This document shows positions 1-51,027 of a stretch of DNA of 63,312 nucleotides, piece after piece (the stretch's first letter is position 1; the number at the start of each line of letters is the position of its first letter). This DNA is from Nanobdellota archaeon (GTDB lineage: Archaea; Nanobdellota; Nanobdellia; Woesearchaeales; GCA-2686295): NCBI GenBank assembly GCA_018817005.1, contig JAHIUF010000015.1, positions 1 through 63,312 of the forward strand, given 5' to 3'. Under the pieces are notes generated by a model that worked only from the letters and a program-made list of their open reading frames with translations, was not told the DNA's origin and ran no database searches. A program made the position numbers and the translations under genes.

Positions 1-20
1 AAAAAGTAAAAATAGAATAA
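1..20 (+). CDS. rpl35ae: Extreme 3' end of probable ribosomal protein L35Ae gene (runs in from left edge)
   Basis: Frame 3 reads KVKIE* (stop 18-20). The duplicated copy at 107-163 reads LFETGMPGQAVGKKVKIE*, resembling the L35Ae C-terminus. Confidence 0.55.
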
Positions 21-187
21 AAACAACAAATTCTAAAAATTATTCGTGCTATTTGATAAATATCAACATAGCACTTAAAGGTTTTGCTCAAGGTTTTCTA
101 AAAACATTGTTCGAAACCGGAATGCCAGGACAAGCAGTTGGCAAAAAAGTAAAAATAGAATAAAAACAACAAATTCTAAAAATTATT
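1..187 (+). repeat. Direct repeat of at least 44 bp (1-44 = 144-187), period 143 bp
   Basis: AAAAAGTAAAAATAGAATAAAAACAACAAATTCTAAAAATTATT occurs identically twice; the first copy is cut by the window edge. Confidence 0.9.
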
Positions 188-8290: not shown

Positions 8291-9097
8291 CTACAATTGA
8301 TCCAAAGGACTCTTTACTTTGCGTTTTTCAGCATTAGAAACATGGGTATAAATCTGTGTTGTCTGAAGATTAGCGTGACCTAAAAGATCCTGAATAACCC
8401 TGATATCAGTGCCATTTTCAAGAAGATGAGTTGCAAAACTATGTCTTAAAGTATGAGGTGTAACCACCTTTGAAATACCCGCACGCTTCGCCGCAAGAGA
8501 CACAATTTTTTGCACATTTCTCGTCGATAAATTGCCATTTCTACCATTAAATAATAAATCCTCTGAACGATTTTTTAAATATTTATAAATGTCTTTTACA
8601 ACCAAATCAGACAAAATAACTAATCTATCTTTAGCACCTTTTCCACCACGAACCCATGCACTTTTTGACTCCAACTCAAGATCAGAAACCCTAAGACCTA
8701 CCAGCTCTGAAACACGCATTCCTGATGAATAAAGAAGCTTAATTATAAGCACAGTTTTTTTTGAACCAGCACCACATATTAGCCTCTTTATTTCCTCTCT
8801 TGTAAGTACAACCGGTAATTTCTGAGCGATTTTTGGAGTTTTAATATTAACAATATTCATCTTTAGAATCTCATCATAATAAAACTTTAAAGCAGATTTC
8901 ACTAATGCAAGTGTTGCGTTAGAAACTTTCTTCTCAGATAAAAGATAAGATAAAAAAGACTTGATGTCATCCTCAGAAACTAAGTCTGCAGGTTTAGAAC
9001 AAAAGTTTATGAACTGCTTATTATAATAAAGATAAGATTCAACAGTTCTTGGGCTAAAACCTCTTAGTTTTAACTCAACATCAAGCTTTTTAAGCAT
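8291..9097 (-). CDS. xerA: Tyrosine recombinase XerA (XerC/D family)
   Basis: All catalytic motifs present: LYSSGMRVSEL (R), GKGAKDR (K), HTLRHSFATHLL (HxxR), LLGH and QIYTHV (Y); N-terminal SAM-like domain; adjacent dif site. Confidence 0.9.
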   Translation of the reverse strand: MLKKLDVELKLRGFSPRTVESYLYYNKQFINFCSKPADLVSEDDIKSFLSYLLSEKKVSNATLALVKSALKFYYDEILKMNIVNIKTPKIAQKLPVVLTREEIKRLICGAGSKKTVLIIKLLYSSGMRVSELVGLRVSDLELESKSAWVRGGKGAKDRLVILSDLVVKDIYKYLKNRSEDLLFNGRNGNLSTRNVQKIVSLAAKRAGISKVVTPHTLRHSFATHLLENGTDIRVIQDLLGHANLQTTQIYTHVSNAEKRKVKSPLDQL

Positions 9098-38854: not shown

Positions 38855-38965
38855 GCCTCCGTGGCTTAGTGGCTATAGCGGTCGCCTAGTAATAACAAAA
38901 AAGAAAAAAAATCTTTTTTGGAATCAGACAGCGACAGGTCGTGAGTTCAACTCTCACCGGAGGCT
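38855..38965 (+). tRNA. trnT: tRNA-Thr(AGT) with 38-nt intron (38892-38929) at position 37/38
   Basis: Acceptor GCCTCCG/CGGAGGC, anticodon stem GTCGC/GCGAC, loop CT-AGT-A|A, T stem GTGAG/CTCAC, discriminator T. Confidence 0.88.
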
Positions 38966-40982: not shown

Positions 40983-41066
40983 GCCTCTGTGGCTTAGTGG
41001 TATAGCGCGTGCTTGGTAAACATTCCAGACAGCACGAGGTCGCGAGTTCAATTCTCGCCAGAGGCT
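40983..41066 (+). tRNA. trnT: tRNA-Thr(GGT) with 12-nt intron (41019-41030); integration target
   Basis: GCCTCTG/CAGAGGC, CGTGC/GCACG, TT-GGT-A|A and GCGAG-TTCAATT-CTCGC; BHB helix TTGG/CCAG. Confidence 0.93.
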
Positions 41067-41164
41067 TATATGTTTTGGTAGATGTTTGTTCTTATTTAGA
41101 GGTTTAAAAGTGAGTCTAAGAACGTATGTTAAAGGCTTACCTTTATATTTCCCCTAAAAAGTGA

Positions 41165-41350
41165 TTAGTTTTTTGTCGTTGGGTGGTCTCCTATTTTTCT
41201 GTTGTGCTTATATGCTTTTAGTACTCCTATAAATCCTAATTCTTTAAATTTGTCGTTTATTCCTGCAGATAATTCGTCCCATTCGATTGTGTTGGGTTTA
41301 TAGCTTGTTTGTTTGTCTTTTTTAAGTTTTTCTATATTTATTATATTCAT
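41165..41350 (-). CDS. Small hypothetical protein (element)
   Basis: Start MNIIN after AAGGAG in the repeated leader. Confidence 0.6.
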   Translation of the reverse strand: MNIINIEKLKKDKQTSYKPNTIEWDELSAGINDKFKELGFIGVLKAYKHNRKIGDHPTTKN

Positions 41351-41446
41351 TTTATTTTTCTCCTTTGTTAAATCTTTGTTTAACATCTTTTTTTTATTCT
41401 AATTTTTTTAACTTTATTTTTCTCCTTTGTTAAAATCTTTGTTGTT

Positions 41447-41719
41447 TTAACAAATTTTTATTTGTTTTTCTTCTTCTTGTTTTTCTTCTTCTTGTATTTC
41501 TTCTGGTTTCGTTACTTGTCTTGCAATAAATTCTAGTGTTGTTTTCATTTCATAAAATTCGGCTTTTATTTTACTTAGTTCAATTATTGAGTCTCTGTAA
41601 ACTTCAACAAGTCGGTTTAATTCTGTTCCTGCTTTTATGAGTTTATTTATTGTTTTTACAAATTGTTTAAAGGCTGTTTTATCTTCTACTTCTTGGTAGT
41701 CGTTAATTTTTGTTATCAT
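41447..41719 (-). CDS. Small coiled-coil protein (element)
   Basis: ATGA-coupled to the upstream ORF. Confidence 0.65.
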   Translation of the reverse strand: MITKINDYQEVEDKTAFKQFVKTINKLIKAGTELNRLVEVYRDSIIELSKIKAEFYEMKTTLEFIARQVTKPEEIQEEEKQEEEKQIKIC

Positions 41720-41907
41720 TTGCTTTTATGGATTATTTTTCTTAAGTATTCAAAATCTTCTTCTGCTTCTGTGATGAATCTGCATAGTAAAATAATTAAT
41801 TTTTTATCTTCGCTAATTTTTTTGTAAAGGTTTTTTGTTTCTTGTATGTGTTTTTCTGTGTTTGTTAGTGCTTTTAGTTGTTGTTGTTTATTTTTGTTAT
41901 TTTTCAT
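41716..41907 (-). CDS. Small helical protein (element)
   Basis: Start MKNNK after the repeated leader. Confidence 0.6.
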   Translation of the reverse strand: MKNNKNKQQQLKALTNTEKHIQETKNLYKKISEDKKLIILLCRFITEAEEDFEYLRKIIHKSK

Positions 41908-42008
41908 TTTGTTTTTCTCCTTTGTTAAATCTTTGTTTAACATCTTTTTTTTATTTCAAATTTTAATATTATTTTTTTTTATCACCTTTTTTCTTTGTAT
42001 CTTTTCTG

Positions 42009-42234
42009 AAGTTCCTGACTTGGTTAGCTCATTTTTTGGCTAACCAATCATGAACTTTTTAAAAATCCTTTTTTTCGGCAGTTGCAAACTGCTTTACTAT
42101 CTTTTTCAAAGAAATGACTGGTTTTGCTCTTTCAAATTGTTTTTTATCAATCGGTATTTTTGAATAAGAAGCAAGGCTTCATCATCTCAAAAATAAAAAG
42201 CTTTATCTTGTCGGAATCAGCTTGTCTGGTTCTG
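42009..42234 (+). other. Non-coding multi-hairpin region (candidate single-strand origin or ncRNA)
   Basis: Hairpins at 42009-42057, 42078-42092, 42168-42180 and 42212-42234; G-T pairs favour folding of the plus strand. Confidence 0.5.
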
Positions 42235-42484
42235 AAAGAATAAAACTTTTAGATACACTTTAGAAAAAACAATCTTTTCAAGAATTATCCATTTTCATGT
42301 TATTTTTTTTCCCTTTAAAATTTGAAATTAATTTTTTTGTTTTTTGCTGTTTTTCTTTATTTTTTTGGTTCTTTGCTGTTTTTTGTTTTTTGCTGTTTTT
42401 CCTTATTTTTTTGTTTTTTTTCTTTTTTTTGTCGTCTTTATTTTATGATTTATTAGTTTTTTATTATATATGTTGTGTTACCAT

Positions 42485-42560
42485 AATCTTTATATACTTT
42501 GAAAGTTATACTTTTATTTAAGTTAGAATTTTCTTTAAAAAACGAAAGATTTATATAGTC
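42485..42560. promoter_or_regulatory. Divergent TATA/BRE promoters of the element
   Basis: Plus-strand CGAAAGATTTATATA at 42543-42557; minus-strand AAAGTATATAAAG near 42488-42500. Confidence 0.55.
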
Positions 42561-42658
42561 CTTTCCATATTAGAATGTGTAGATAATCGTTTATCGTGGA
42601 TGGTTTTTGTAGTTTTTACATATGATTAACGATTTGAGGTATAAGAAAATGTTGTTTT

Positions 42659-42841
42659 GTGTTTTGGGTGTTGCAAGTGAGTGATTGGATTACTATAACT
42701 TTTCCTAATTATTTTAGGGCTTTGTTTGATGATATTAAAGCTGAGAGAAAGGATTTAGTTTCTGAAAGGTTAATAACTCAAGAAGCTGTTAGGTTTTTTT
42801 GGCGTGTTAATTGTGAATCTAAGAAGTCTAAAAGAAGATGA
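42659..42841 (+). CDS. Small putative ribbon-helix-helix protein
   Basis: WITITFP (strand) followed by two short helices (FRALFDDIKAE, SERLITQEAVRFFW). Confidence 0.45.
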   Translation: MFWVLQVSDWITITFPNYFRALFDDIKAERKDLVSERLITQEAVRFFWRVNCESKKSKRR

Positions 42842-42962
42842 GTTTTTTTGTTTTTTTTAAATCTTTTTTTTCTAATTCTATTTTTAAATCTAATTTTTTT
42901 AAATCTTTTTTTTCTTTTTTAGTTTTTTTGTCCTCGTTGGTGTTTGTGCATTGTTTAAAATT

Positions 42963-43026
42963 TAAGCCACTCGATAGTGGCTTACTATTAAACAAGAGTC
43001 ACCGGTGTTCGAATCGCGAAGCGATT
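42963..43026 (+). other. Candidate double-strand origin (dso) of rolling-circle replication
   Basis: Hairpin TAAGCCACT-CGAT-AGTGGCTTA; CCACTCGATA resembles phiX174 CAACTTG/ATA; palindrome CACCGGTG; hairpin AATCGC-GAA-GCGATT. Confidence 0.7.
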
Positions 43027-43063
43027 GACTTAATGCACCATGAAATTAGAGGGGGTGTTTTAA

Positions 43064-43279
43064 ATGGCTGTTAAGAGAAAGATTGGTAATGTTTTTATTA
43101 TCGCTTATGATTTGTTTGGTAAAAAGGTTTTTTCTTCAAAAATAACTTCTTTTAATTTTAATTGCTTGAGGTATCTAGCAATTCGTGATAAAATATCTAT
43201 TGATAAAGTTTTATCTCGTCTTATTTTATTTAATAAGAAGTTTGAAACTAAATCTAAAGTTTCTGAGGTTTCTAAATGA
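43064..43279 (+). CDS. Small basic protein, RHH/CopG-like, coupled to rep
   Basis: GGGGTG RBS; LRYLAIRDKISIDKVLSRLI; ATGA overlap with rep. Confidence 0.55.
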   Translation: MAVKRKIGNVFIIAYDLFGKKVFSSKITSFNFNCLRYLAIRDKISIDKVLSRLILFNKKFETKSKVSEVSK

Positions 43280-44577
43280 CTTTTCAAAAATCTGTTTATA
43301 AGCATTTCTTAGAAAATATTAGTTTGGTAAGTTTTGGTTTTGAAGTTTCAAATTATAATTATGTTTACAAAACTCCTTTTACTGAATCTCCTTATAGTAA
43401 TACTTTAAATGGTAATATTAATAATATTAATAATAATATTAGTGAAACTCCTTTACTTGTTCAAATAGGAATAACTCTTCCAGAGGTTAATCATTTAAAT
43501 TTTTTGTCTGCTTTAAGGAGTTTTGGTTATTTTAAAACTGATTATACTTTTAATAAATCCGTTGGTTGTTTTAAAGGTGAGTTGGGTGCTTCTGGCTTGG
43601 TTGTAGATTATGGTTGTCACGCTGTCGATTTGCCTGATAGGTGTGGGCAGTTGTTTTGTCCTAAGTGTTCTAAGTTGTATCGTTATAAGACTAAAAAGAG
43701 GGTTGTTGAAAAGGTTTTGTCTATGAGAAATCCTCGTTTTCTTACTTTTAGTGGTTCTAATGTTTCTGAGTTATCTAAAGAGTATTTTCAGAATAATTCT
43801 AAGATTTGGAATCGTTTTAAAACTGATGTAAATAAAGATTTCGGGTGTGTTTTTCAAGATTATGTGAATGTTATTGAAGTAAAGTTTCATGCTAAGGGTT
43901 CTAATAAGTATGATAAAAATGGTTCTGTGATTGGTGTTTATGATTCTAATAGTTGGAATATTCATAACCATATAATTTATGATGGTAAATACTTAGATTT
44001 CCATACTGCAAGAAACTACTTGTTAAAGGCTTCTAAAGGTCGTTATAAAGCTATTTGGTTTGAAAAGGCTAATAATGTTCAAGATAAGGTTAAGAGTGCT
44101 GGTTACATTTCTAAGTATCTTTTAAAGGCTTCTGGTTTTGGTGGTGATGTTCAGGCTATGGCTCAGTTTTATTTTCATACTAAAAATATGAGAATGGTCA
44201 CTTTTGGTCGTTCTAAAGATGTTTATGTTCCGTCTTTAGAAGAAGCTTTGCAGTTTCCTCAGACTCGTTCTTTATTCACTTGTCCATTATGTAATAAAAA
44301 AGTTAGTTCTGTAACTTTAAGTTTTGTTCGTGTTAAGGATAGAGATAATAATTATAAGGATTATGATTCACCAATATACATTGGTGTTATTGAAGATTCT
44401 TCTCAGCGTTTATTGAATGGTTCTGATGAAGTTTTACGTTTTATTGAATCTCAAAAGGGTGTTATGAATAATGCTTTAGAGATAGAAAAATTGTTTGGTG
44501 TAGATGTTATTAACGATTTAAAATCTAAAGGGTTTATTTATGAGTCTAAGATTAATTATTTAGAGGTTTTAAAGTGA
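43276..44577 (+). CDS. rep: HUH rolling-circle replication initiator with Zn-finger and C-terminal wHTH
   Basis: CGQLFCPKC Zn motif; motif I FLTFS; motif II WNIHNHIIY; motif III YISKYLLK; CPLC. Confidence 0.88.
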   Translation: MTFQKSVYKHFLENISLVSFGFEVSNYNYVYKTPFTESPYSNTLNGNINNINNNISETPLLVQIGITLPEVNHLNFLSALRSFGYFKTDYTFNKSVGCFKGELGASGLVVDYGCHAVDLPDRCGQLFCPKCSKLYRYKTKKRVVEKVLSMRNPRFLTFSGSNVSELSKEYFQNNSKIWNRFKTDVNKDFGCVFQDYVNVIEVKFHAKGSNKYDKNGSVIGVYDSNSWNIHNHIIYDGKYLDFHTARNYLLKASKGRYKAIWFEKANNVQDKVKSAGYISKYLLKASGFGGDVQAMAQFYFHTKNMRMVTFGRSKDVYVPSLEEALQFPQTRSLFTCPLCNKKVSSVTLSFVRVKDRDNNYKDYDSPIYIGVIEDSSQRLLNGSDEVLRFIESQKGVMNNALEIEKLFGVDVINDLKSKGFIYESKINYLEVLK

Positions 44578-44867
44578 AATCTATTTCTAAACAATTTCAA
44601 AAGAATGGTTTAAATCTTAAATTACTTGAAAGAGTTGGTAGTGTTGTGTTATTTAAGCTTTTTAATGATGAGGGGTGCGTATATGGTTATGAAGTTCATA
44701 AACTACGCTTAAAATCATATCCCTATGGTAAATTTAACGAATCTGGGGTTATGATTAGAGTAACTAAACTTTGTTTAGCAAGTAATGAAGAATTTGGTCG
44801 TTTTGCTTGGTCTTATGATAATTTTATTTCTGCAAGTAGTAAATTTAATGAATTATTAGAGGTTTAA
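44574..44867 (+). CDS. Hypothetical protein (element)
   Basis: GTGA overlap with rep; YEV and SNEEFGRFAWSY. Confidence 0.65.
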   Translation: MKSISKQFQKNGLNLKLLERVGSVVLFKLFNDEGCVYGYEVHKLRLKSYPYGKFNESGVMIRVTKLCLASNEEFGRFAWSYDNFISASSKFNELLEV

Positions 44868-44869
44868 AG

Positions 44870-45067
44870 TTGGTTCTTAATTACTATGTCGCTTTTAAAG
44901 TTTCGTTATTAGATAGAGAGTTAATAAATGAGTTTGTTGGTGATAAACCTATATCTGAAGTTATTAGAAATATTGTTATGCAAAGAGTAAAACAAGGTTC
45001 TCATATTCAGGATTATTTAGAAAGTATTAATAAACAATTATTTGAAATTAAAGCTAAATTGGTTTAA
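44870..45067 (+). CDS. Small RHH-like protein
   Basis: YVAFKVS..DRELINEF..KPISEVIRNIV. Confidence 0.55.
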   Translation: MVLNYYVAFKVSLLDRELINEFVGDKPISEVIRNIVMQRVKQGSHIQDYLESINKQLFEIKAKLV

Positions 45068-45112
45068 CATTGTTTTACTTTATTTATAAAGGGTGGTTAC
45101 CTATTTTACTGT

Positions 45113-45211
45113 ATGAATTTAGATTTTAATACTATGTTGTTGTTAGCTATACTCTTTATTCTACTCTTTTTTGGTAGTCAATTCTTAAATTTTCTGAGGC
45201 GTTTCATATGA
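45113..45211 (+). CDS. 32-aa single-TM peptide (not in ORF track)
   Basis: MNLDFNTMLLLAILFILLFFGSQFLNFLRRFI*; TTTATAAA box upstream; ATGA overlap with the next ORF. Confidence 0.65.
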   Translation: MNLDFNTMLLLAILFILLFFGSQFLNFLRRFI

Positions 45212-46044
45212 ATAAAAATTATTTAATTATTTTAGGTGTTATCGCTTTAATATTTTTGGGTTTATCAAATGGTTTTTTAAGTAATTCTTTAACTTTTTTA
45301 AAAGAATTTTCTGATAGAGATTCAGCTAATCAATATTTAGATAGTATTAAATCTCAAGGTTATATTAATACGGCTGTTCGTTGTAGTTATGGTTCTGATA
45401 ACAAGGTGAGTAGTTGCAAAGTTTATGGTGAAATATCCTCTGATTCTAATGAAATTTCTAAATCTAATGTTTTAACTGCTTTTGTTGTTTCTAATAGTGT
45501 TTGTGTTGAGAAAAAGTATAGTAGTTCAGAGTGGCGTTTAGATATTATTGAGAAGTCTTTAAATACCAATGTTGATGGTTGTTTTAAGGGTATTAATGTT
45601 GATGGCTGGATTTGGAAATCTAAGAGTTCTTGTGTTGAATGTTTAGTTCGTGTAAATAATAATTTGAATCCTTATACTCGTTATGTTGTAGATTATTCTT
45701 CTGTTGAGCCTGTTTGTGTTGCTGATAGTAATGGTTATTATACTCTTAAAGATTGTTTGGATATTGTTAAACCTGATTTAAAGGTTTGTGGTGGCGTTGA
45801 GAGTGAATGTGTTTATCCTAATGGTGTTAGTAATGCTTTTAGGGTTTGTGAAGATGGTGGTTTAAAAGAGGGTTATTGTGCTGATGGACAATATTGTTAT
45901 GAATCTTCTGATGTCGTTGCTTCTTGCAAGGGTGAGGGTGGTTCTGATGAAGTTCCTGATAGTGTTAAATTTGCAGTTTCTGGTTTTTTAATAGCTGGGA
46001 TTCTTTTAGTTGTTTGGTATCTTTTTAAGAGGGGTAAATTATAA
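45208..46044 (+). CDS. Cys-rich membrane protein with N-terminal hydrophobic segment and C-terminal TM anchor (spike/adhesin-like)
   Basis: 14 Cys in the ectodomain; C-terminal FAVSGFLIAGILLVVWYLFKRGKL. Confidence 0.75.
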   Translation: MNKNYLIILGVIALIFLGLSNGFLSNSLTFLKEFSDRDSANQYLDSIKSQGYINTAVRCSYGSDNKVSSCKVYGEISSDSNEISKSNVLTAFVVSNSVCVEKKYSSSEWRLDIIEKSLNTNVDGCFKGINVDGWIWKSKSSCVECLVRVNNNLNPYTRYVVDYSSVEPVCVADSNGYYTLKDCLDIVKPDLKVCGGVESECVYPNGVSNAFRVCEDGGLKEGYCADGQYCYESSDVVASCKGEGGSDEVPDSVKFAVSGFLIAGILLVVWYLFKRGKL

Positions 46045-46045
46045 A

Positions 46046-46375
46046 ATGTATTTTGTTCAGATTATGAAAAAGTTTTTACCTTATATTGTTTTATTGTTTT
46101 TGGTGTTGTTGTTGTTTAATTATGTTGCTAACAATTTTTTTCAAAGTTATGATGAAAAAGTTGAGGATAAGGCTTATTTTAAATTATTTGGTATGCGTGT
46201 TTTTCCTAAATTTTTTGTTGAGTATGGTGATGTTAAATCTTATCGTGGTGATTATGAGGATTTATGTAAATGGTATATGCTTAAATGTAGTTGGAATTAT
46301 GAGAATAAGCCTTTAGATAATTGGGCTTTAAATAAAGATGGTTGTCGTCAAGAGGGTGACTGGATTGTTTGTTAA
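46046..46375 (+). CDS. Small N-anchored membrane protein with 4 Cys
   Basis: FLPYIVLLFLVLLLF; C-terminal CKW, CSW, CRQ and terminal C. Confidence 0.65.
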   Translation: MYFVQIMKKFLPYIVLLFLVLLLFNYVANNFFQSYDEKVEDKAYFKLFGMRVFPKFFVEYGDVKSYRGDYEDLCKWYMLKCSWNYENKPLDNWALNKDGCRQEGDWIVC

Positions 46376-46406
46376 TGTTCATACTTTTTTCATGCGAAGA
46401 AAGGCT

Positions 46407-46465
46407 GGTTTTTACAGGATTTTGAAAAACTTTTACCCCCTTTCGTTTTTTCACCTGTAAAAACC
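46407..46465. other. Long intergenic hairpin
   Basis: GGTTTTTACAGG/CCTGTAAAAACC 12-bp perfect stem plus inner TGAAAAA/TTTTTCA. Confidence 0.7.
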
Positions 46466-46484
46466 TTATTTAATTTTTGTTAAA

Positions 46485-46733
46485 ATGGTTATTAAGATTT
46501 GTAAGAGTAAGAATAATAAGAATTATTTTTTATATCAGAATAAGCCTTTTTTTATTAATGAATCACCTCGTAATTTAACTCATAATCCTAAGGGTTATGA
46601 TTATTTTATAAGTAATTGTTCTTCTTATGGTGTTTGGTTTAAAAGTGGTTATATTGATGGTTTTGAGGTTTATTTATTTGGTGAATTATTTGGTGTAATT
46701 AATTCTGATGGTGATATTGAAGTTTCTGAATAA
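46485..46733 (+). CDS. Small aromatic-rich hypothetical protein (element)
   Basis: 82-aa ORF with the element's T-ending codon bias. Confidence 0.55.
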   Translation: MVIKICKSKNNKNYFLYQNKPFFINESPRNLTHNPKGYDYFISNCSSYGVWFKSGYIDGFEVYLFGELFGVINSDGDIEVSE

Positions 46734-46782
46734 TTTTTTTAGTAGAAATTTGGTTTAATTAATTTTTTTTATTAATTAGATT

Positions 46783-48039
46783 TTAATTTCTTTTCAATTT
46801 TTGAAATTGTTTTAATTTGTTTTTTTTTAAAATTGTTTTTTCTTCGTCTGTAAGATTTATTTTTCTTAATTTCATTATTGTTTCTAATTTTTGTTTAATA
46901 TTTAAGAAATCTATGTGGGTAGTTTGTTGTCTTCTGAATAGGTTGTTAAATATTTCGTTTTTTATTTTTTGTTGTTTAATTTCTTCTTTTAAGAGATTGC
47001 TTTCTTTAATTAATTGGTTTATTTGTTCTTGTTGTTTTTCTGCTTGAAAAGTGATTATTTTTTGTTTTGGTTTGTGTCTGTCGATTGCTAAAAAGTTAAT
47101 ATACTTGTCTATTTCTTTACTGCTTGGTTTATGTCCTAATCGGCTGTTGATTTCATCTCTGCTCCATCCTTTGTTTAGTAAATCACAAGCCATTGATGAA
47201 CGTAAATCTTTCCATGTTAATACTTGTCCGTTTGGTCTGCATTTCGTTTGTGTAATTTTTATTGTTCTTTTAAGTATTTTAAAGGCGTTTCGATAATCAA
47301 ATTTGAAGATTTGTTCTTCTTCATCATCTATTTTATTTAGAATAGCGTTTAATAGTTTTGCTGTTTCTGAGTAGTTTGTGATTTCACTTCTGGCTGTTCG
47401 GCTTCTTTTGAGTGTTTCTCGTCTTAGGTTTATTCTGTATTCATAATCATTATTTGTTTTATTTGTTTCTTTATTGCAATCTTTTTTTTTGAGTTGCAGT
47501 ATAGCTGTAATATTTTCTCCAATATCGAAGGCTAACCATATTAAGAGTTTATGTTCTGGTTTTGTGGTGGTTTCGATTATATTTCTGACTTCTTCTTCAG
47601 TGATATATCTTACTTCTTCTGTGTTTTTGTGGTGTCCATATTGCATTACTTCTTTGACTATTTTTTGTTTGCCTAACATTTCGAAAGGTTTGCTTTTAAA
47701 GATTTTATTGTAGAAACTATTTTTATCTTTATATGGTGTTCCTTTTTCGGTTTTTATCGTTCCATCTTCTAATCCGTTATAGACTTTTTCAAAGTCTTTT
47801 TTTGTAATGTTTTTTAATGGTTTATTTTGAAACCATTTATTTACTGTGTTTAGTAGTGTTATGTAAGTATAGAGTGTTTTGTAACAGCCTTTATCTAATT
47901 CGTTTAGATCATTATTTCTTTTTAATTTATATTCTTCATATTCAAAGAATTTTTTAAAGAATTCTCTGTTTTCGTTGCAAATATTTTTGTTTTGTAGAAA
48001 ATTTTTGATTCTTTTTTCATAGCTTATTTTTTCTTTCAT
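46783..48039 (-). CDS. int: Tyrosine integrase, atypical catalytic motifs
   Basis: WLAFDIGENITAILQL (box I), TLKRSR, WKDLRSS (box II), RLGH and DKY; adjacent to attR. Confidence 0.85.
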   Translation of the reverse strand: MKEKISYEKRIKNFLQNKNICNENREFFKKFFEYEEYKLKRNNDLNELDKGCYKTLYTYITLLNTVNKWFQNKPLKNITKKDFEKVYNGLEDGTIKTEKGTPYKDKNSFYNKIFKSKPFEMLGKQKIVKEVMQYGHHKNTEEVRYITEEEVRNIIETTTKPEHKLLIWLAFDIGENITAILQLKKKDCNKETNKTNNDYEYRINLRRETLKRSRTARSEITNYSETAKLLNAILNKIDDEEEQIFKFDYRNAFKILKRTIKITQTKCRPNGQVLTWKDLRSSMACDLLNKGWSRDEINSRLGHKPSSKEIDKYINFLAIDRHKPKQKIITFQAEKQQEQINQLIKESNLLKEEIKQQKIKNEIFNNLFRRQQTTHIDFLNIKQKLETIMKLRKINLTDEEKTILKKNKLKQFQKLKRN

Positions 48040-48279
48040 ATAAGCTTGATAAATTCTGATTTATTTAAATGTTTTGGTAACATCTACTATATTGAGTATT
48101 CTCGCCAGAGGCTTGCAAAGCAAGACGAGAAGGCGAGGCCCAAAAACAAAAAAGTTTTTGACTGTCTCGCCAGAAGCTTACCGCTCTTTTGGTTGGTTTT
48201 TAAAGATATATTTAGAAATCATCGAATCAGACTCAGAAATTCTTATTACCGGTTGGATATTTTTAAGTTAATAATATAT

Positions 48280-51027
48280 TTATTCCACTTGTATTTCTAA
48301 TCCTTTCAGTCTTTTTTGTTCTTTGAATTCGCTTTTTATTAGTGCTTTTATTATCTCTGCAACTATTATTACTAAGCTACTAATTAGTGTTATAGTTATC
48401 CATTCAATTGCTGACAACGGAACTGTGTTAAAGATTTTTTGTCCAATTTCACTATATATTACCAGTATTGTTAATACTAGTGATGTGCCTACTGCTATGA
48501 ATATGTATTTGTTTGAAAAGAATTTCTTGTTAAATATGGTTGTGTGTAGTGACCTTGCATTGAATGTGTGCAATAATTCAAACATTATAAGAGTTACAAA
48601 GGCCACTGTCCGAGCTTTTTCTATGCCCCCGTCACCAATGTTTAATTCCCATAAAAATAATGCTAATGTTCCTAAAAATAACAACGGAACTAATACAAAT
48701 ATTTTTAATAAAATATAATGGGACAATATTTTTTCATCTGGATTTCTGGGTTTTTGTTTCATCACTTTTATATGCGTTGATTCAACACTTAATGCTAACG
48801 CTGGAAATGTGCTTGTTACTAAATTAATGAATAATATCATTAAAGCTGTTAAAGGTGTTATTAATCCAATCAGAACTGTTGATATTATGAGAATTACTTC
48901 TGTCATGTTTCCTGTTAATAAATAATATATGAATCGTCTGATATTGCTATAAATTGTTCTTCCTTCTTTTATTGCATTGACTATTGTTGAGAAATGGTCA
49001 TCTGTTAGCACCATGTTTGATGCCTCTCTGGCCACTTCTGTACCTGATTTACCCATACTTACACCTATATCTGCTTTTTTTAATGCAGGAGCATCGTTTA
49101 CGCCATCACCGGTCATTGCAACAATTTCTCCTTTTCTTTGAAGAGAACTAACTATTCTTAACTTATGGTCTGGTGTTGTTCTTGAAAATATTACTACTTT
49201 AGAAATGATTTTATCCAATTCTTCATCACTTATCTTATCAAGTTCCCAGCCTTCGAGAACTAAATCCTCACTTGTTTGTATTAAACCAAGTTTCTTCCCA
49301 ACACTTTTTGCTGTGTGCTTATGATCTCCAGTAATCATTATTACTCTGACATTGGCGCTTTGACATTCTTCAACTGCTTGGTATGCTTCTTCACGTATAG
49401 GGTCATCAATCCCAACTAATCCTTCAAATATAAATTTTGAATTGAGGTCTTCGTGGATATTATCTATTTGCTTAGTTGCAATTCCTAGAACTCTGTAAGT
49501 TTGGTTACCATAATGATGAACTTGAGATAAAATTTTGTTAACTATATCCTGATTTAATCTGATTATTTCATTATTTTTTATTCTTATATAAGTGCATTTT
49601 TCAAGAACTTTTTCAACCGCTCCTTTCAAATAAGCAGTTTTATTATCGTGATCCGCATTTATAGTTATCATGAATTTTTCGAACGGGTCAAAAGGCATTT
49701 CAAATAGTTGTTTATTTTCTTTTCTTATTGAAAGATCATCAAAACCTGCACTTTTAGCTAATGCTAATATAGCTCCTTCAGTTGGTTCGCCAGATAAGAC
49801 CCATTCTTCATCTTTGATTAAAAGTTGCGCATCATTACATAAAATGCATGCTTTAAAAAATTCTTGATATTTAGTAAATTCATGTTTATTGAAAACTTCT
49901 TGTTTATTTGAAAATGTGCTTGTTGGATTATATTTATGTCCTTTTACTTCAACTTCCAGACCATCAGAAAAGAAAATCTTTTCCACAAGCATTTTGTTCT
50001 CTGTAAGTGTTCCTGTTTTATCTGTGCAAATTATTGTTGTTGTTCCCAAGGTTTCAACAGCACTTAAATCTTTTACTATGGCATTTTTTTTGGCCATTCG
50101 TTTAACACCATTAGATAATGCCATTGTTAATGCTAAGGGAAAACTTTCAGGTATTCCTGAAACTGCTACAGCTCCAACTAATATTAATGATTCAAATAGT
50201 CCAAAGTTTTTACTAAGTAAAACAAAAAAAAGAAATATACACGCAACAATAACTGCATAAGCAATTCTTTTACTCATATCATCTATTTGTTTTTGCAAAG
50301 GACTTCTTTGAAAACCTATTTTTTTTAATGATACAGATATTTTTCCAATTTCAGATTCTAAACCTGTTGCAATAACTATTCCATGACCATGACCATTAGT
50401 GATGCTTGTTCCGGCGAATAACATGTTTTGTTGGTCGCTTATTGGAACGTCCTGTTCTTCAATTTTATCTGTTCGTTTATATTTTTGAATTGATTCGCCT
50501 GTGAGAATTGATTCATTAACGGATAATCCTTTGCTTTCAATAACTCTAATGTCTGCAGGAACAATCATTCCTCGTTTTAGAATGATTATATCCCCTATAA
50601 CTAATTCTTCATGATTAATTTGTGTTTTTCTCCCGTTACGAATAACTTCAACATATTTGACAGTCAATTTAGATAATGCTTCTAATGATTTTCCTGCATG
50701 ATATTCTTGTATAAAACCAAATAACCCAGTTAATAATATTATGACTGCAATTACTATGAACTCAATTAAATGATTTGAAAAAAGTGATATTAAAGCACTT
50801 CCTAATAAGATATATATTAAAAGTGAGTTGAAGTTTCTGAATAATAACTTAAGAACTTTATTTTTTTCTTCTTGAGCAATCGTATTTAGGCCATTAATTT
50901 TGAGCCTATCTTTTGCTTCTTGTTCTTTCAAACCATTAATTGAAGATTTTAATTCTAATAATGTTTCATCTACAGATATTTGATGCCAATAATTTTTATT
51001 GTTATCTTTTAAATTATTCTCGTTCAT
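48280..51027 (-). CDS. P-type cation (Ca2+, type IIA-like) ATPase 1
   Basis: TGES, IPES, DKTGT, KGA, TGD and GDGVNDAPALK. Confidence 0.95.
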   Translation of the reverse strand: MNENNLKDNNKNYWHQISVDETLLELKSSINGLKEQEAKDRLKINGLNTIAQEEKNKVLKLLFRNFNSLLIYILLGSALISLFSNHLIEFIVIAVIILLTGLFGFIQEYHAGKSLEALSKLTVKYVEVIRNGRKTQINHEELVIGDIIILKRGMIVPADIRVIESKGLSVNESILTGESIQKYKRTDKIEEQDVPISDQQNMLFAGTSITNGHGHGIVIATGLESEIGKISVSLKKIGFQRSPLQKQIDDMSKRIAYAVIVACIFLFFVLLSKNFGLFESLILVGAVAVSGIPESFPLALTMALSNGVKRMAKKNAIVKDLSAVETLGTTTIICTDKTGTLTENKMLVEKIFFSDGLEVEVKGHKYNPTSTFSNKQEVFNKHEFTKYQEFFKACILCNDAQLLIKDEEWVLSGEPTEGAILALAKSAGFDDLSIRKENKQLFEMPFDPFEKFMITINADHDNKTAYLKGAVEKVLEKCTYIRIKNNEIIRLNQDIVNKILSQVHHYGNQTYRVLGIATKQIDNIHEDLNSKFIFEGLVGIDDPIREEAYQAVEECQSANVRVIMITGDHKHTAKSVGKKLGLIQTSEDLVLEGWELDKISDEELDKIISKVVIFSRTTPDHKLRIVSSLQRKGEIVAMTGDGVNDAPALKKADIGVSMGKSGTEVAREASNMVLTDDHFSTIVNAIKEGRTIYSNIRRFIYYLLTGNMTEVILIISTVLIGLITPLTALMILFINLVTSTFPALALSVESTHIKVMKQKPRNPDEKILSHYILLKIFVLVPLLFLGTLALFLWELNIGDGGIEKARTVAFVTLIMFELLHTFNARSLHTTIFNKKFFSNKYIFIAVGTSLVLTILVIYSEIGQKIFNTVPLSAIEWITITLISSLVIIVAEIIKALIKSEFKEQKRLKGLEIQVE

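Follow-up and report, generated by a model that had tools for sequence, protein, structure and literature searches.

The question raised by contig JAHIUF010000015.1 of a groundwater Nanobdellota archaeon (order Woesearchaeales; GenBank assembly GCA_018817005.1) is what kind of element occupies its tRNA-Thr gene: an integrated virus with a single-stranded DNA (ssDNA) genome, a satellite, or an integrative replicon of the plasmid type. The window, i.e., the whole stretch of DNA analysed, is the entire contig (C53), 63,312 nucleotides long, from a genome of 1.66 Mb assembled in 91 contigs and 91% complete; the element is a 7-kb unit within it. A first-pass annotation had described this unit as a novel ssDNA virus or satellite. 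What stands of that proposal is a mobile element bounded by attachment (att) sites, with a rolling-circle replication initiator (Rep) and an ssDNA-like composition; that it is a virus or satellite is so far not supported. The likeliest single reading, which we put slightly below an even chance, is an integrative rolling-circle replicon with a plasmid-like backbone, still mobile and with a long-lived ssDNA stage, while virus and satellite taken together carry about a third of the probability. Little is known of the mobile elements that ultra-small DPANN archaea carry, and the accessible portions of the literature searched describe neither a rolling-circle integrative element nor an ssDNA virus for Woesearchaeota-type archaea.

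Boundaries, target site, and mobility

The target of integration is a tRNA-Thr(GGT) gene located on the plus strand (40983–41066), recognised by ARAGORN and by the Rfam family RF00005 (60.7 bits, model positions 1–71 over 84 nt). It is 84 nt long, its sequence comprising an intron-like insertion 3' of the anticodon. The DPANN label of the first-pass annotation agrees with this insertion, with relatives in the same order, and with one Rep relative titled Woesearchaeota. The element is bordered by two exact plus-strand copies of the 17-nt direct repeat ATTCTCGCCAGAGGCTT, the attL core at the 3' end of the tRNA gene (41051–41067) and the attR core (48098–48114). The repeat consists of the final 16 bases of the tRNA and one further base, and the unit, counted with a single copy of it, measures 7,047 bp. 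A single copy is present in this genome.

Parts of the stretch are found in eight public metagenome runs from five studies, and the contigs of four of them (X1–X4) were compared; run X1, possibly the source sample, holds 0.92 of the sampled words of the stretch. The empty site is represented by a 438-nt contig of run X2, in which the 13 tRNA bases preceding 41051 are joined to 48098–48522. The occupied site is seen in run X1, where a 20.6-kb left-flank contig (depth 15.5) stops exactly at 41067 and attR is bridged by a contig covering 47463–48153 (depth 5.13); the left-flank contig of run X4 likewise stops at 41067. Pieces of 387–715 nt from runs X2 and X3, which belong to another study, are identical to the window. 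Since occupied and empty sites both occur among the metagenome contigs, the element is polymorphic in the population. The complete att-bounded unit of ca. 7.05 kb described by the first-pass annotation is thus upheld by the exact repeats, the empty-site contig, and the flanks ending at 41067, and the element is supported as a complete, still-mobile unit and shown to have moved recently.

In run X1 the contigs of the element have a depth of 4.1–6.2, below that of the flank contig and similar to that of the contig bridging attR, which suggests that only a minority of the population has the element integrated, subject to the caveat of the tool itself that contig depth is no copy number. There is no sign of extra free double-stranded copies in this run. 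The depth within the element is patchy in run X4, and nothing was drawn from it. The attP junction, proposed earlier as a check, is not listed among the contigs of the four runs in either junction or circular form, contigs being a product that drops rare forms; what the check did yield is the empty site of run X2. Joints at 38880/41036, as well as short-sided joints inside the element (with sides of 20–27 nt, or with intervening letters), were discounted, being matches between tRNAs or in low-complexity sequence.

A third, degenerate att core (48163–48179, 14 of 17 positions), which the empty-site contig also has, lies just to the right of attR, after a stretch that looks like a decayed tRNA 3' half. 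The whole region (48117–48179) may have been left by an earlier integration event at this tRNA. A second tRNA gene of 111 nt, presumably with a long intron, is found at 38855–38965 (Rfam 51.5 bits) and is absent from the ARAGORN output.

The Rep protein and candidate origins of replication

The rep gene (43276–44577, plus strand) codes for a protein of 433 aa in which alignment, profile, and an AlphaFold2 (AF2) model outline a zinc ribbon, an HUH nuclease with a YxxKY motif, a second Cys pair, and a winged-helix-like C-terminal end. An exhaustive HMMER search gave 70 relatives at E ≤ 1e-3 (best 2.6e-24, 32% identity), 37 sequences being taken into the alignment. Residues C98, C123, C128, C131, T157, E201, H230, H232, Y277, Y281, and K284 are invariant, and K280 nearly so; they make up the zinc ribbon, motif I, the conserved Glu, the HxH motif, and YxxKY. 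The two-tyrosine HUH Rep recognised in the first-pass annotation is corroborated by this conservation of HxH, Y277/Y281, and the zinc ribbon and by the model, which matches HUH initiators.

Compared alone with the Pfam family Rep_1 (PF01446), Rep scores 16 bits, under the cut-off of 33.2. Among the 37 family members, however, 25 match Rep_1 at E ≤ 0.01 (best 4.6e-17), 20 match REP_ORF2-G2P, and 18 the IS91 zinc domain. Against fetched records the family profile gave E-values of 4.2e-16 for the pC194 Rep and 3.7e-12 for the pUB110 Rep, and a weak one of 4.2e-4 for ORF1 of HRPV-1; there was no match in M13 (gene II included), SpV1, or SpV4. The HxH of the family (H230/H232) aligns with HFH of pC194 and HMH of pUB110, while its first tyrosine (Y277) corresponds to Glu in both plasmids. 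The two-tyrosine motif, AGYISKYLLK, is closer to AGYLGKYLSK of HRPV-1 than to the motif of either plasmid, and hhalign of Rep with HRPV-1 ORF1 gave an E of 1.2e-4 and a probability of 55.6%. The best match of the AF2 model (predicted local distance difference test score, pLDDT, 74.9) in the PDB is RepB of pMV158, a weak one (E 5e-3, probability 0.90); in BFVD the model has 146 matches at E ≤ 1e-3, of which those with names are Microvirus replication initiators. A word-index protein search returned Rep itself alone, a tblastn comparison with phage and plasmid records was negative at E ≤ 1, and sequence searches of the PDB gave nothing meaningful. At the level of sequence comparison, Rep is thus confirmed as a two-tyrosine HUH protein that belongs to the pC194/pUB110 (Rep_1) lineage, in which it represents a divergent archaeal branch. 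The pUB110-like lineage is dominated by bacteria and includes a handful of archaeal sequences and one inovirus, according to the accessible part of Kazlauskas et al. (2019, PMC6668415). Rep-Arvir was rejected as the family of this Rep, being described as Rep_trans-like in the available text of PMC13107129.

The candidate nick site of the double-strand origin is the heptamer CTTGATA (48045–48051, plus strand), which occurs once in the element. It lies on the Rep-sense strand in the 58-nt non-coding segment that separates the integrase start from attR, next to an inverted repeat of 7 bp (48021–48046), and its fold has a z-score of −2.5. CTTGATA, which we take to be the nick site of pC194 and pUB110, is present in the records of both plasmids, preceded in each by TTCTTTCTTAT. 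It is also found on the Rep-sense strand, outside the called open reading frames (ORFs), in the relatives G102, L010, and L011, the last having in this region 13 bases equal to pC194.

Two other regions of the plus strand fold as DNA more stably than any of 200 shuffles. The first is an extended hairpin (42009–42057) with a perfect 9-bp stem (42020–42047), for which the fold of 42005–42065 gave −14.1 kcal/mol and z −5.57; it is a candidate single-strand origin or terminator. The second, a branched structure (42946–43038) with a 9-bp hairpin (42963–42984), is located directly upstream of the rep operon (fold of 42945–43045, −21.8 kcal/mol, z −5.99), and is a candidate single-strand origin. Both folds would suit single-strand origins. 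The hairpins behind the origin-like label of the first-pass annotation are real, the label itself being an interpretation, and the sole CTTGATA is located elsewhere.

Upstream of the rep operon there are also three T-rich, iteron-like direct repeats of 29 nt (42333–42407, plus strand; 83–100% identity within the repeat family) and a second triple T-rich set (42855–42928). Both sets (29–32 nt) are non-coding and iteron-like in appearance, but of low compositional complexity.

The integrase

A tyrosine integrase of 418 aa is encoded on the minus strand (46783–48039), with its start codon 59 nt from attR. The assignment made in the first-pass annotation holds: the protein scores 29.0 bits against PF00589 (cut-off 27.1) and matches phrog_1 with an E of 2.6e-14, while its match to an NCBIfam family of the XerA type (8.4e-10) is under the cut-off of that family. 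Residues R214, R217, K277, R280, H303, and Y313 are invariant across five aligned sequences. Relatives at E ≤ 1e-20 are found in 10 of 400 other genomes of the order; five of them are 46–56% identical over the matched parts, and four aligned in full show 45–49% identity.

The Rep profile matched one of the seven loci with integrases of this family, that of G102, and no Rep of this family lies within about 10 kb of the related integrases in G016, G077, and G370. In the last of these genomes an 11.3-kb unit (L038, 64–11359; G370:C4) is delimited by an exact 17-nt repeat and codes at one end for an integrase ca. 45% identical to that of the element; the Rep family is not represented in it, and integrases of this family are therefore used by elements of several types. 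Far from the element, a 270-aa frame of the window (8291–9097) gives a stronger Phage_integrase match (E 1.5e-44) and is likely a chromosomal recombinase of the XerA type, and three more Phage_integrase matches occur on other contigs of the genome.

Strand composition

The plus strand of the element consists of 0.467 T, 0.260 A, 0.170 G, and 0.103 C. At four-fold degenerate sites the host ORFs of at least 250 codons have A 0.416 and T 0.421 (n = 122,396), while the nine plus-strand ORFs of the element have T 0.836 and A 0.082 (n = 402), and its four minus-strand ORFs, read in their coding sense, A 0.693 and T 0.121 (n = 140). The earlier statement that the plus strand is T-rich whichever strand is coding is thereby verified. 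Written as plus-strand letters for the whole element, these sites are 0.80 T and 0.09 A, a T/A ratio of 8.7, and the ratio is 7.6 with Rep and the integrase alone, the two genes backed by homology.

Computed in the same way, the ratio is 1.0 for pUB110, 1.1 for a plasmid of S. thermophilus, 1.7 for one of B. subtilis, 1.9 for one of Pediococcus, and 1.8 for the G102 element; among viruses it is 1.6 for SpV1, 2.3 for the capsid gene of SpV4, 2.9 for HRPV-1, and 4.5 for M13. In the rep gene itself T makes up 0.845 of the four-fold sites, compared with 0.46–0.55 in four relatives of low G+C content. The direction of the bias, though not its size, fits chemical damage to a long-lived single strand. 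The AT skew of the whole element (−0.28) was dropped as an argument, as it is not unique among 7-kb windows of the genome (maximum 0.377), and the argument was therefore placed on the values per gene and at four-fold sites.

Genes located behind rep and other open reading frames

Seven plus-strand ORFs are packed between 43064 and 46375 with overlaps or gaps of 0–2 nt, except for one gap of 45 nt. Their order is that of a 71-aa ORF (43064–43279), which overlaps the start of rep by 4 nt and has no family, Rep, a 97-aa ORF (44574–44867) overlapping the rep stop, a 65-aa ORF (44870–45067), and three genes for proteins with hydrophobic segments. The first of these three is a 32-aa single-transmembrane (TM) peptide with an acidic N end and a basic C end (45113–45211, hydropathy window 1–29). 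It is followed by a Cys-rich protein of 278 aa (45208–46044) with 14 Cys, an N-terminal hydrophobic segment (1–26), and a C-terminal anchor (249–275), and by an N-anchored protein of 109 aa with four Cys and no family (46046–46375, hydrophobic at 2–33), for which the ORF list has a TTG start at 46010. The TM peptide, the Cys-rich C-anchored protein, and the N-anchored protein of the first-pass annotation are thus all present, packed behind rep and in agreement with hydropathy. The genes packed behind rep are probably expressed with it.

None of the cargo proteins behind rep has a match passing the cut-offs in Pfam, PHROGs, or NCBIfam, and no virion, packaging, capsid, or Zot-like gene was recognised in the element with these collections. 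A Walker A motif, [AG]x4GK[STD], occurs in none of its six frames. The statement that no Walker-A ATPase and no recognisable capsid are visible therefore agrees with the motif search and with Pfam and PHROGs. For the 278-aa protein a word-index search (708 candidates) returned itself alone, and one marginal match (E 0.0025) was found in 400 other genomes of the order; the comparison of structures proposed for the products of this module gave no usable match with its Atlas model (pLDDT 0.57). The genes packed behind rep, from the 97-aa to the 109-aa one, are read as surface or membrane cargo rather than as a proven virion module.

For the 97-aa protein, sequence searches returned itself alone; its comparison with the Atlas gave values of 0.92 for features and 0.79–0.82 for structure (TM-score) to unnamed clusters mostly labelled Uroviricota, a lead only, and its AF2 model made without an alignment has a pLDDT of 46. 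The 65-aa ORF matches DUF2023 alone (E 0.057, under the cut-off). An ORF of 60 aa with a GTG start (42659–42841, plus strand) has no Pfam family at E ≤ 10. The "ribbon-helix-helix (RHH)-like" genes of the first-pass annotation were not recovered, as the 60-, 71-, and 65-aa ORFs match no RHH-type family at E ≤ 10. A soluble 82-aa ORF without a family (46485–46733, plus strand) follows the packed block.

Three small ORFs without a family occupy the minus strand near attL: a Lys/Glu-rich one of 73 aa (41165–41386), one of 90 aa with an acidic tail (41447–41719), and one of 75 aa (41716–41943). The minus strand is T-poor here and long ORFs arise in it more easily, for which reason the 73-aa ORF is regarded as putative coding sequence. 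An exact repeat of 35 nt makes residues 1–13 the same in this ORF and in the 75-aa one. Within 41305–41978 a 117-nt segment is repeated with 74% identity, with the 35-nt core exact (41364–41398 and 41921–41955).

Relatives in other genomes

The Rep family profile was searched in 400 other genomes of the phylum, seven of which match at E ≤ 1e-5. The best-delimited relative, that of G102, spans 6,032 bp between 20-nt repeats (18 of 20 positions identical), and its repeat starts at the 3' end of a tRNA gene with halves split by a long insert. This tRNA (L012, 6932–7124; G102:C8), with its halves more than 100 nt apart, is missed by ARAGORN and Rfam and was read from the acceptor, the D-arm, and the att repeat. 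The G102 integrase is 47.6% identical to that of the element, while its Rep is only 25% identical (1.2e-59 to the family profile). The remaining contents are a DUF7557 protein and three more small ORFs without a family; the cargo proteins of 95, 269, and 147 aa are devoid of membrane segments and unrelated to the cargo of the element. The first-pass annotation had named ordinary plasmids with variable cargo as the relatives that would speak against a virus. G102 resembles such a relative in combining the same integrase and Rep families with other cargo, but with a Rep identity of 25% and without the extreme T bias (T/A 1.8) it does not settle the nature of the element.

In G420 a lone Rep (L021, 1533–2435; G420:C15) has host genes as its neighbours (DsbA-like, Lrp/AsnC, RNA polymerase B). 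This Rep scores above the Pfam thresholds of Rep_1 (39 bits), REP_ORF2-G2P, and Zn_Tnp_IS91, had no match in tblastn against plasmids, and may be a remnant or a rolling-circle transposon. A GC-rich contig of 7.1 kb titled Candidatus Woesearchaeota (L007, 1–7138) carries a family Rep cut by the contig end. Also encoded are a DNA methyltransferase (phrog_757, 2e-27), a protein with a zinc ribbon, and four that are membrane-bound or secreted; an ORF of 329 aa includes the stretch GQRMGKD, which resembles a P-loop, and matches no family. No terminal repeat was found in the contig, and no similarity of its cargo to that of the present element. L007 may be a fuller, virus-like relative. In a 3-kb contig (L009) a tRNA-Pro(GGG) gene (429–502) lies ca. 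740 nt upstream of a family Rep and faces away from it; it was set aside as an integration site, the contig being too short. The IMG/VR check proposed earlier turned up nothing: profile scans, that for Rep made with a 9-sequence alignment, found no relative of the element.

Replicon, virus, or satellite

A plain replicon is ranked first because the recognisable parts of the element are plasmid-like, its nearest relative swaps cargo, and nothing virion-like was recognised. In such a replicon, the integrase would excise the unit as a circle, and Rep would nick the plus strand, most likely at the sole CTTG/ATA (48045–48051), 47 nt from the att core in the circle. A Rep tyrosine would hold the 5' end while host enzymes displace the whole plus strand, and the second tyrosine would close it into a single-stranded circle, the complementary strand of which would be primed from one of the folded regions (42009–42057 or 42946–43038). 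A long life of the plus strand as ssDNA would explain the 80% T at neutral sites whichever strand codes.

Several observations weigh against the plain replicon. CTTGATA is expected by chance 0.97 times per strand of the element length, and the heptamer is therefore a candidate origin that is not significant alone. The membrane genes form one tight block with rep, with overlaps of 4 nt; small viruses are built as tight overlapping blocks, which accessory cargo usually is not. The sizes and order of these genes, moreover, recall the coat modules of filamentous phages (M13 record). Above all, the T/A of 8.7 is far higher than the values of the four Rep_1 plasmids (1.0–1.9) and of G102 (1.8) and exceeds even that of M13 (4.5), so that ordinary plasmid rolling-circle replication is insufficient as an explanation. 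The unremarkable depth of the element in run X1 has to be read with contig depth not being copy number and with standard libraries missing ssDNA. A virus or satellite stays in consideration because of the extreme strand bias and of a membrane block coupled to rep.

The strongest of the alternatives, and still an unlikely one, is a temperate ssDNA virus of a new kind with the Rep-made circle as its genome. The 32-, 278-, and 109-aa proteins would build or decorate a filamentous or membrane-derived particle, which would exit without an element-encoded ATPase. The T bias of the Rep-sense strand has the same direction as in the packaged strands of M13, SpV4, SpV1, and HRPV-1, exceeds all four, and is not shared by relatives with the same Rep family; if the element were a virus, this record bias would be the mark left on the plus strand by its existence as packaged ssDNA. 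The membrane genes overlapping in one block with rep, the two-tyrosine motif nearer to HRPV-1 ORF1 than to pC194/pUB110 (together with the hhalign result given above), and the size of 7,047 bp, close to the 7,048 nt of HRPV-1, point the same way. Short proteins of 30–90 aa with a single TM domain are a feature of inovirus genomes, and inovirus-like proviruses occur in Euryarchaeota and Aenigmarchaeota, according to the accessible part of Roux et al. (2019, PMC6813254). The same source, as far as available, regards pI as the sole conserved inovirus marker, while the element encodes no ATPase; the records of both HRPV-1 (VP8) and M13 (pI) annotate one. Nor does it encode a multi-TM matrix-type protein, and its cargo proteins are similar to no ORF of HRPV-1, M13, SpV1, or SpV4 at E ≤ 0.1, nor to PHROGs or Pfam families. 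This lack of similarity to structural proteins, the absence of a relative in IMG/VR, of an attP junction among the contigs compared, and of excess depth, and the want of a helper candidate in the genome for the two marker families tried are the points on which the virus or satellite part of the earlier proposal was not upheld. The most specific form of the virus reading, a first ssDNA virus of Woesearchaeota-type DPANN archaea that would be temperate, 7 kb in size, and ATPase-less, with a Rep derived from pC194-like plasmids and a motor-free particle, is somewhat less likely again.

An improbable reading is that of a satellite that depends on a helper: a replicon derived from a plasmid, its particle module incomplete, would borrow the ATPase and the main coat from a co-infecting virus. 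The plasmid-type replication module beside a partial-looking membrane module and the lack of an ATPase agree with it. Plasmid-derived, Rep-encoding satellites with incomplete morphogenetic modules are described from haloarchaea and the DPANN Nanohaloarchaeota in the accessible text of Zhou et al. (10.1101/2025.02.15.638363). Nevertheless, the element has no gene similar to that of any known virion protein, hence there is no signature of hijacking. The 91%-complete genome offers no helper candidate for the two marker families tried: Zot (PF05707) gave weak matches in ordinary chromosomal genes of contig C74, and no terminase-type gene was found.

More doubtful still is a remnant left by deletion from a larger provirus, one that would have lost its ATPase and capsid genes and would no longer move by itself. 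L007, with its family Rep, methyltransferase, membrane proteins, and P-loop-like ORF, suggests that fuller relatives may exist, but its cargo is unlike that of the element and its 329-aa ORF has no family. The exact 17-nt att copies, the intact and tightly packed ORFs, the occurrence of occupied and empty sites in the population, and the pieces of 387–715 nt from the runs of a second study, which show no difference, argue against decay.

An IS91-like rolling-circle transposon, as opposed to a replicon, can be given next to no credence: the N-terminal zinc domain of Rep weakly matches Zn_Tnp_IS91 (E 3.4e-4), as do 18 of the 37 family members, and the Rep of G420 is a lone gene among host genes, but the catalytic part matches Rep_1 and no transposase family, and the element has its own integrase, an att site in a tRNA gene, a precise empty site, and a single copy in the genome.

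Comparison with known systems

The integrative rolling-circle replicon preferred here has its closest counterparts in pC194 and pUB110, with which the Rep family shares CxxxxCPxC, a motif I of the FLTxT type, the conserved Glu, HxH, and KYxxK, and the element has CTTGATA in common with both. It differs from them in having YxxKY where the plasmids have Glu and Tyr, a 120-aa N-terminal extension of Rep, a C-terminal Cys pair, and a winged-helix-like end. Its host, moreover, is an archaeon, it integrates by means of its own integrase, and its strand bias is 4.6 to 8.7 times larger than that of the four Rep_1 plasmids compared.

HRPV-1 (Halorubrum pleomorphic virus 1), an Alphapleolipovirus with a circular ssDNA genome of 7,048 nt, resembles the element in size, in a two-tyrosine HUH Rep with a near-identical tyrosine motif, in a pyrimidine-rich coding-sense strand, and in gene order: in both, small genes come after rep and precede a gene for a protein that begins with a signal-like segment and is anchored at its C-terminus. 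Nevertheless, the relation of the Rep proteins is weak (profile E 4.2e-4, hhalign probability 55.6%), the element proteins have no BLASTP match to VP3 or VP4 at E ≤ 1 and none to VP8, the element has no ATPase, its spike-like protein is half as long, and its integrase is not found in HRPV-1. An archaeal Rep branch with two tyrosines and a pleolipovirus-like motif bears on the origin of ssDNA viruses from plasmids.

The element is like M13 and other Tubulavirales in its rolling-circle Rep, in the T-richness of the sense strand (0.576 T at the four-fold sites of M13), and in the succession of a TM peptide, a Cys protein hydrophobic at both ends, and a protein of ca. 110 aa, which is the order of genes VII/IX/VIII, III, and VI. 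att sites of the tRNA type are also described for inovirus-like proviruses (accessible part of PMC6813254). Unlike Tubulavirales, the element has no pI/Zot ATPase, and it shows no similarity to any protein of M13 or SpV1. Its T bias, stronger than in any control, may be a signature by which cryptic ssDNA elements can be marked in genomes.

With SRCE and the pSSVx/pSSVi satellites the element shares a small Rep replicon, a DPANN-type host, and a possibly incomplete particle module (10.1101/2025.02.15.638363, as far as accessible). Those satellites carry a recognisable capsid protein of the helper type or an AAA+ ATPase; the element carries neither, and no helper was found for it with the Zot and terminase markers.

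As a mobile 7-kb unit with exact ends, a defined target site, and a likely origin, the element represents the type of backbone that is needed for genetic tools in organisms that lack them. In the manner of its integration it conforms to other archaeal elements that integrate into tRNA genes, having a core that overlaps the tRNA 3' end, an integrase gene beside one att site, and a precise empty site, and differs from them in the pairing of this integrase with a Rep_1-type module, seen in one of the seven loci of the integrase family examined.

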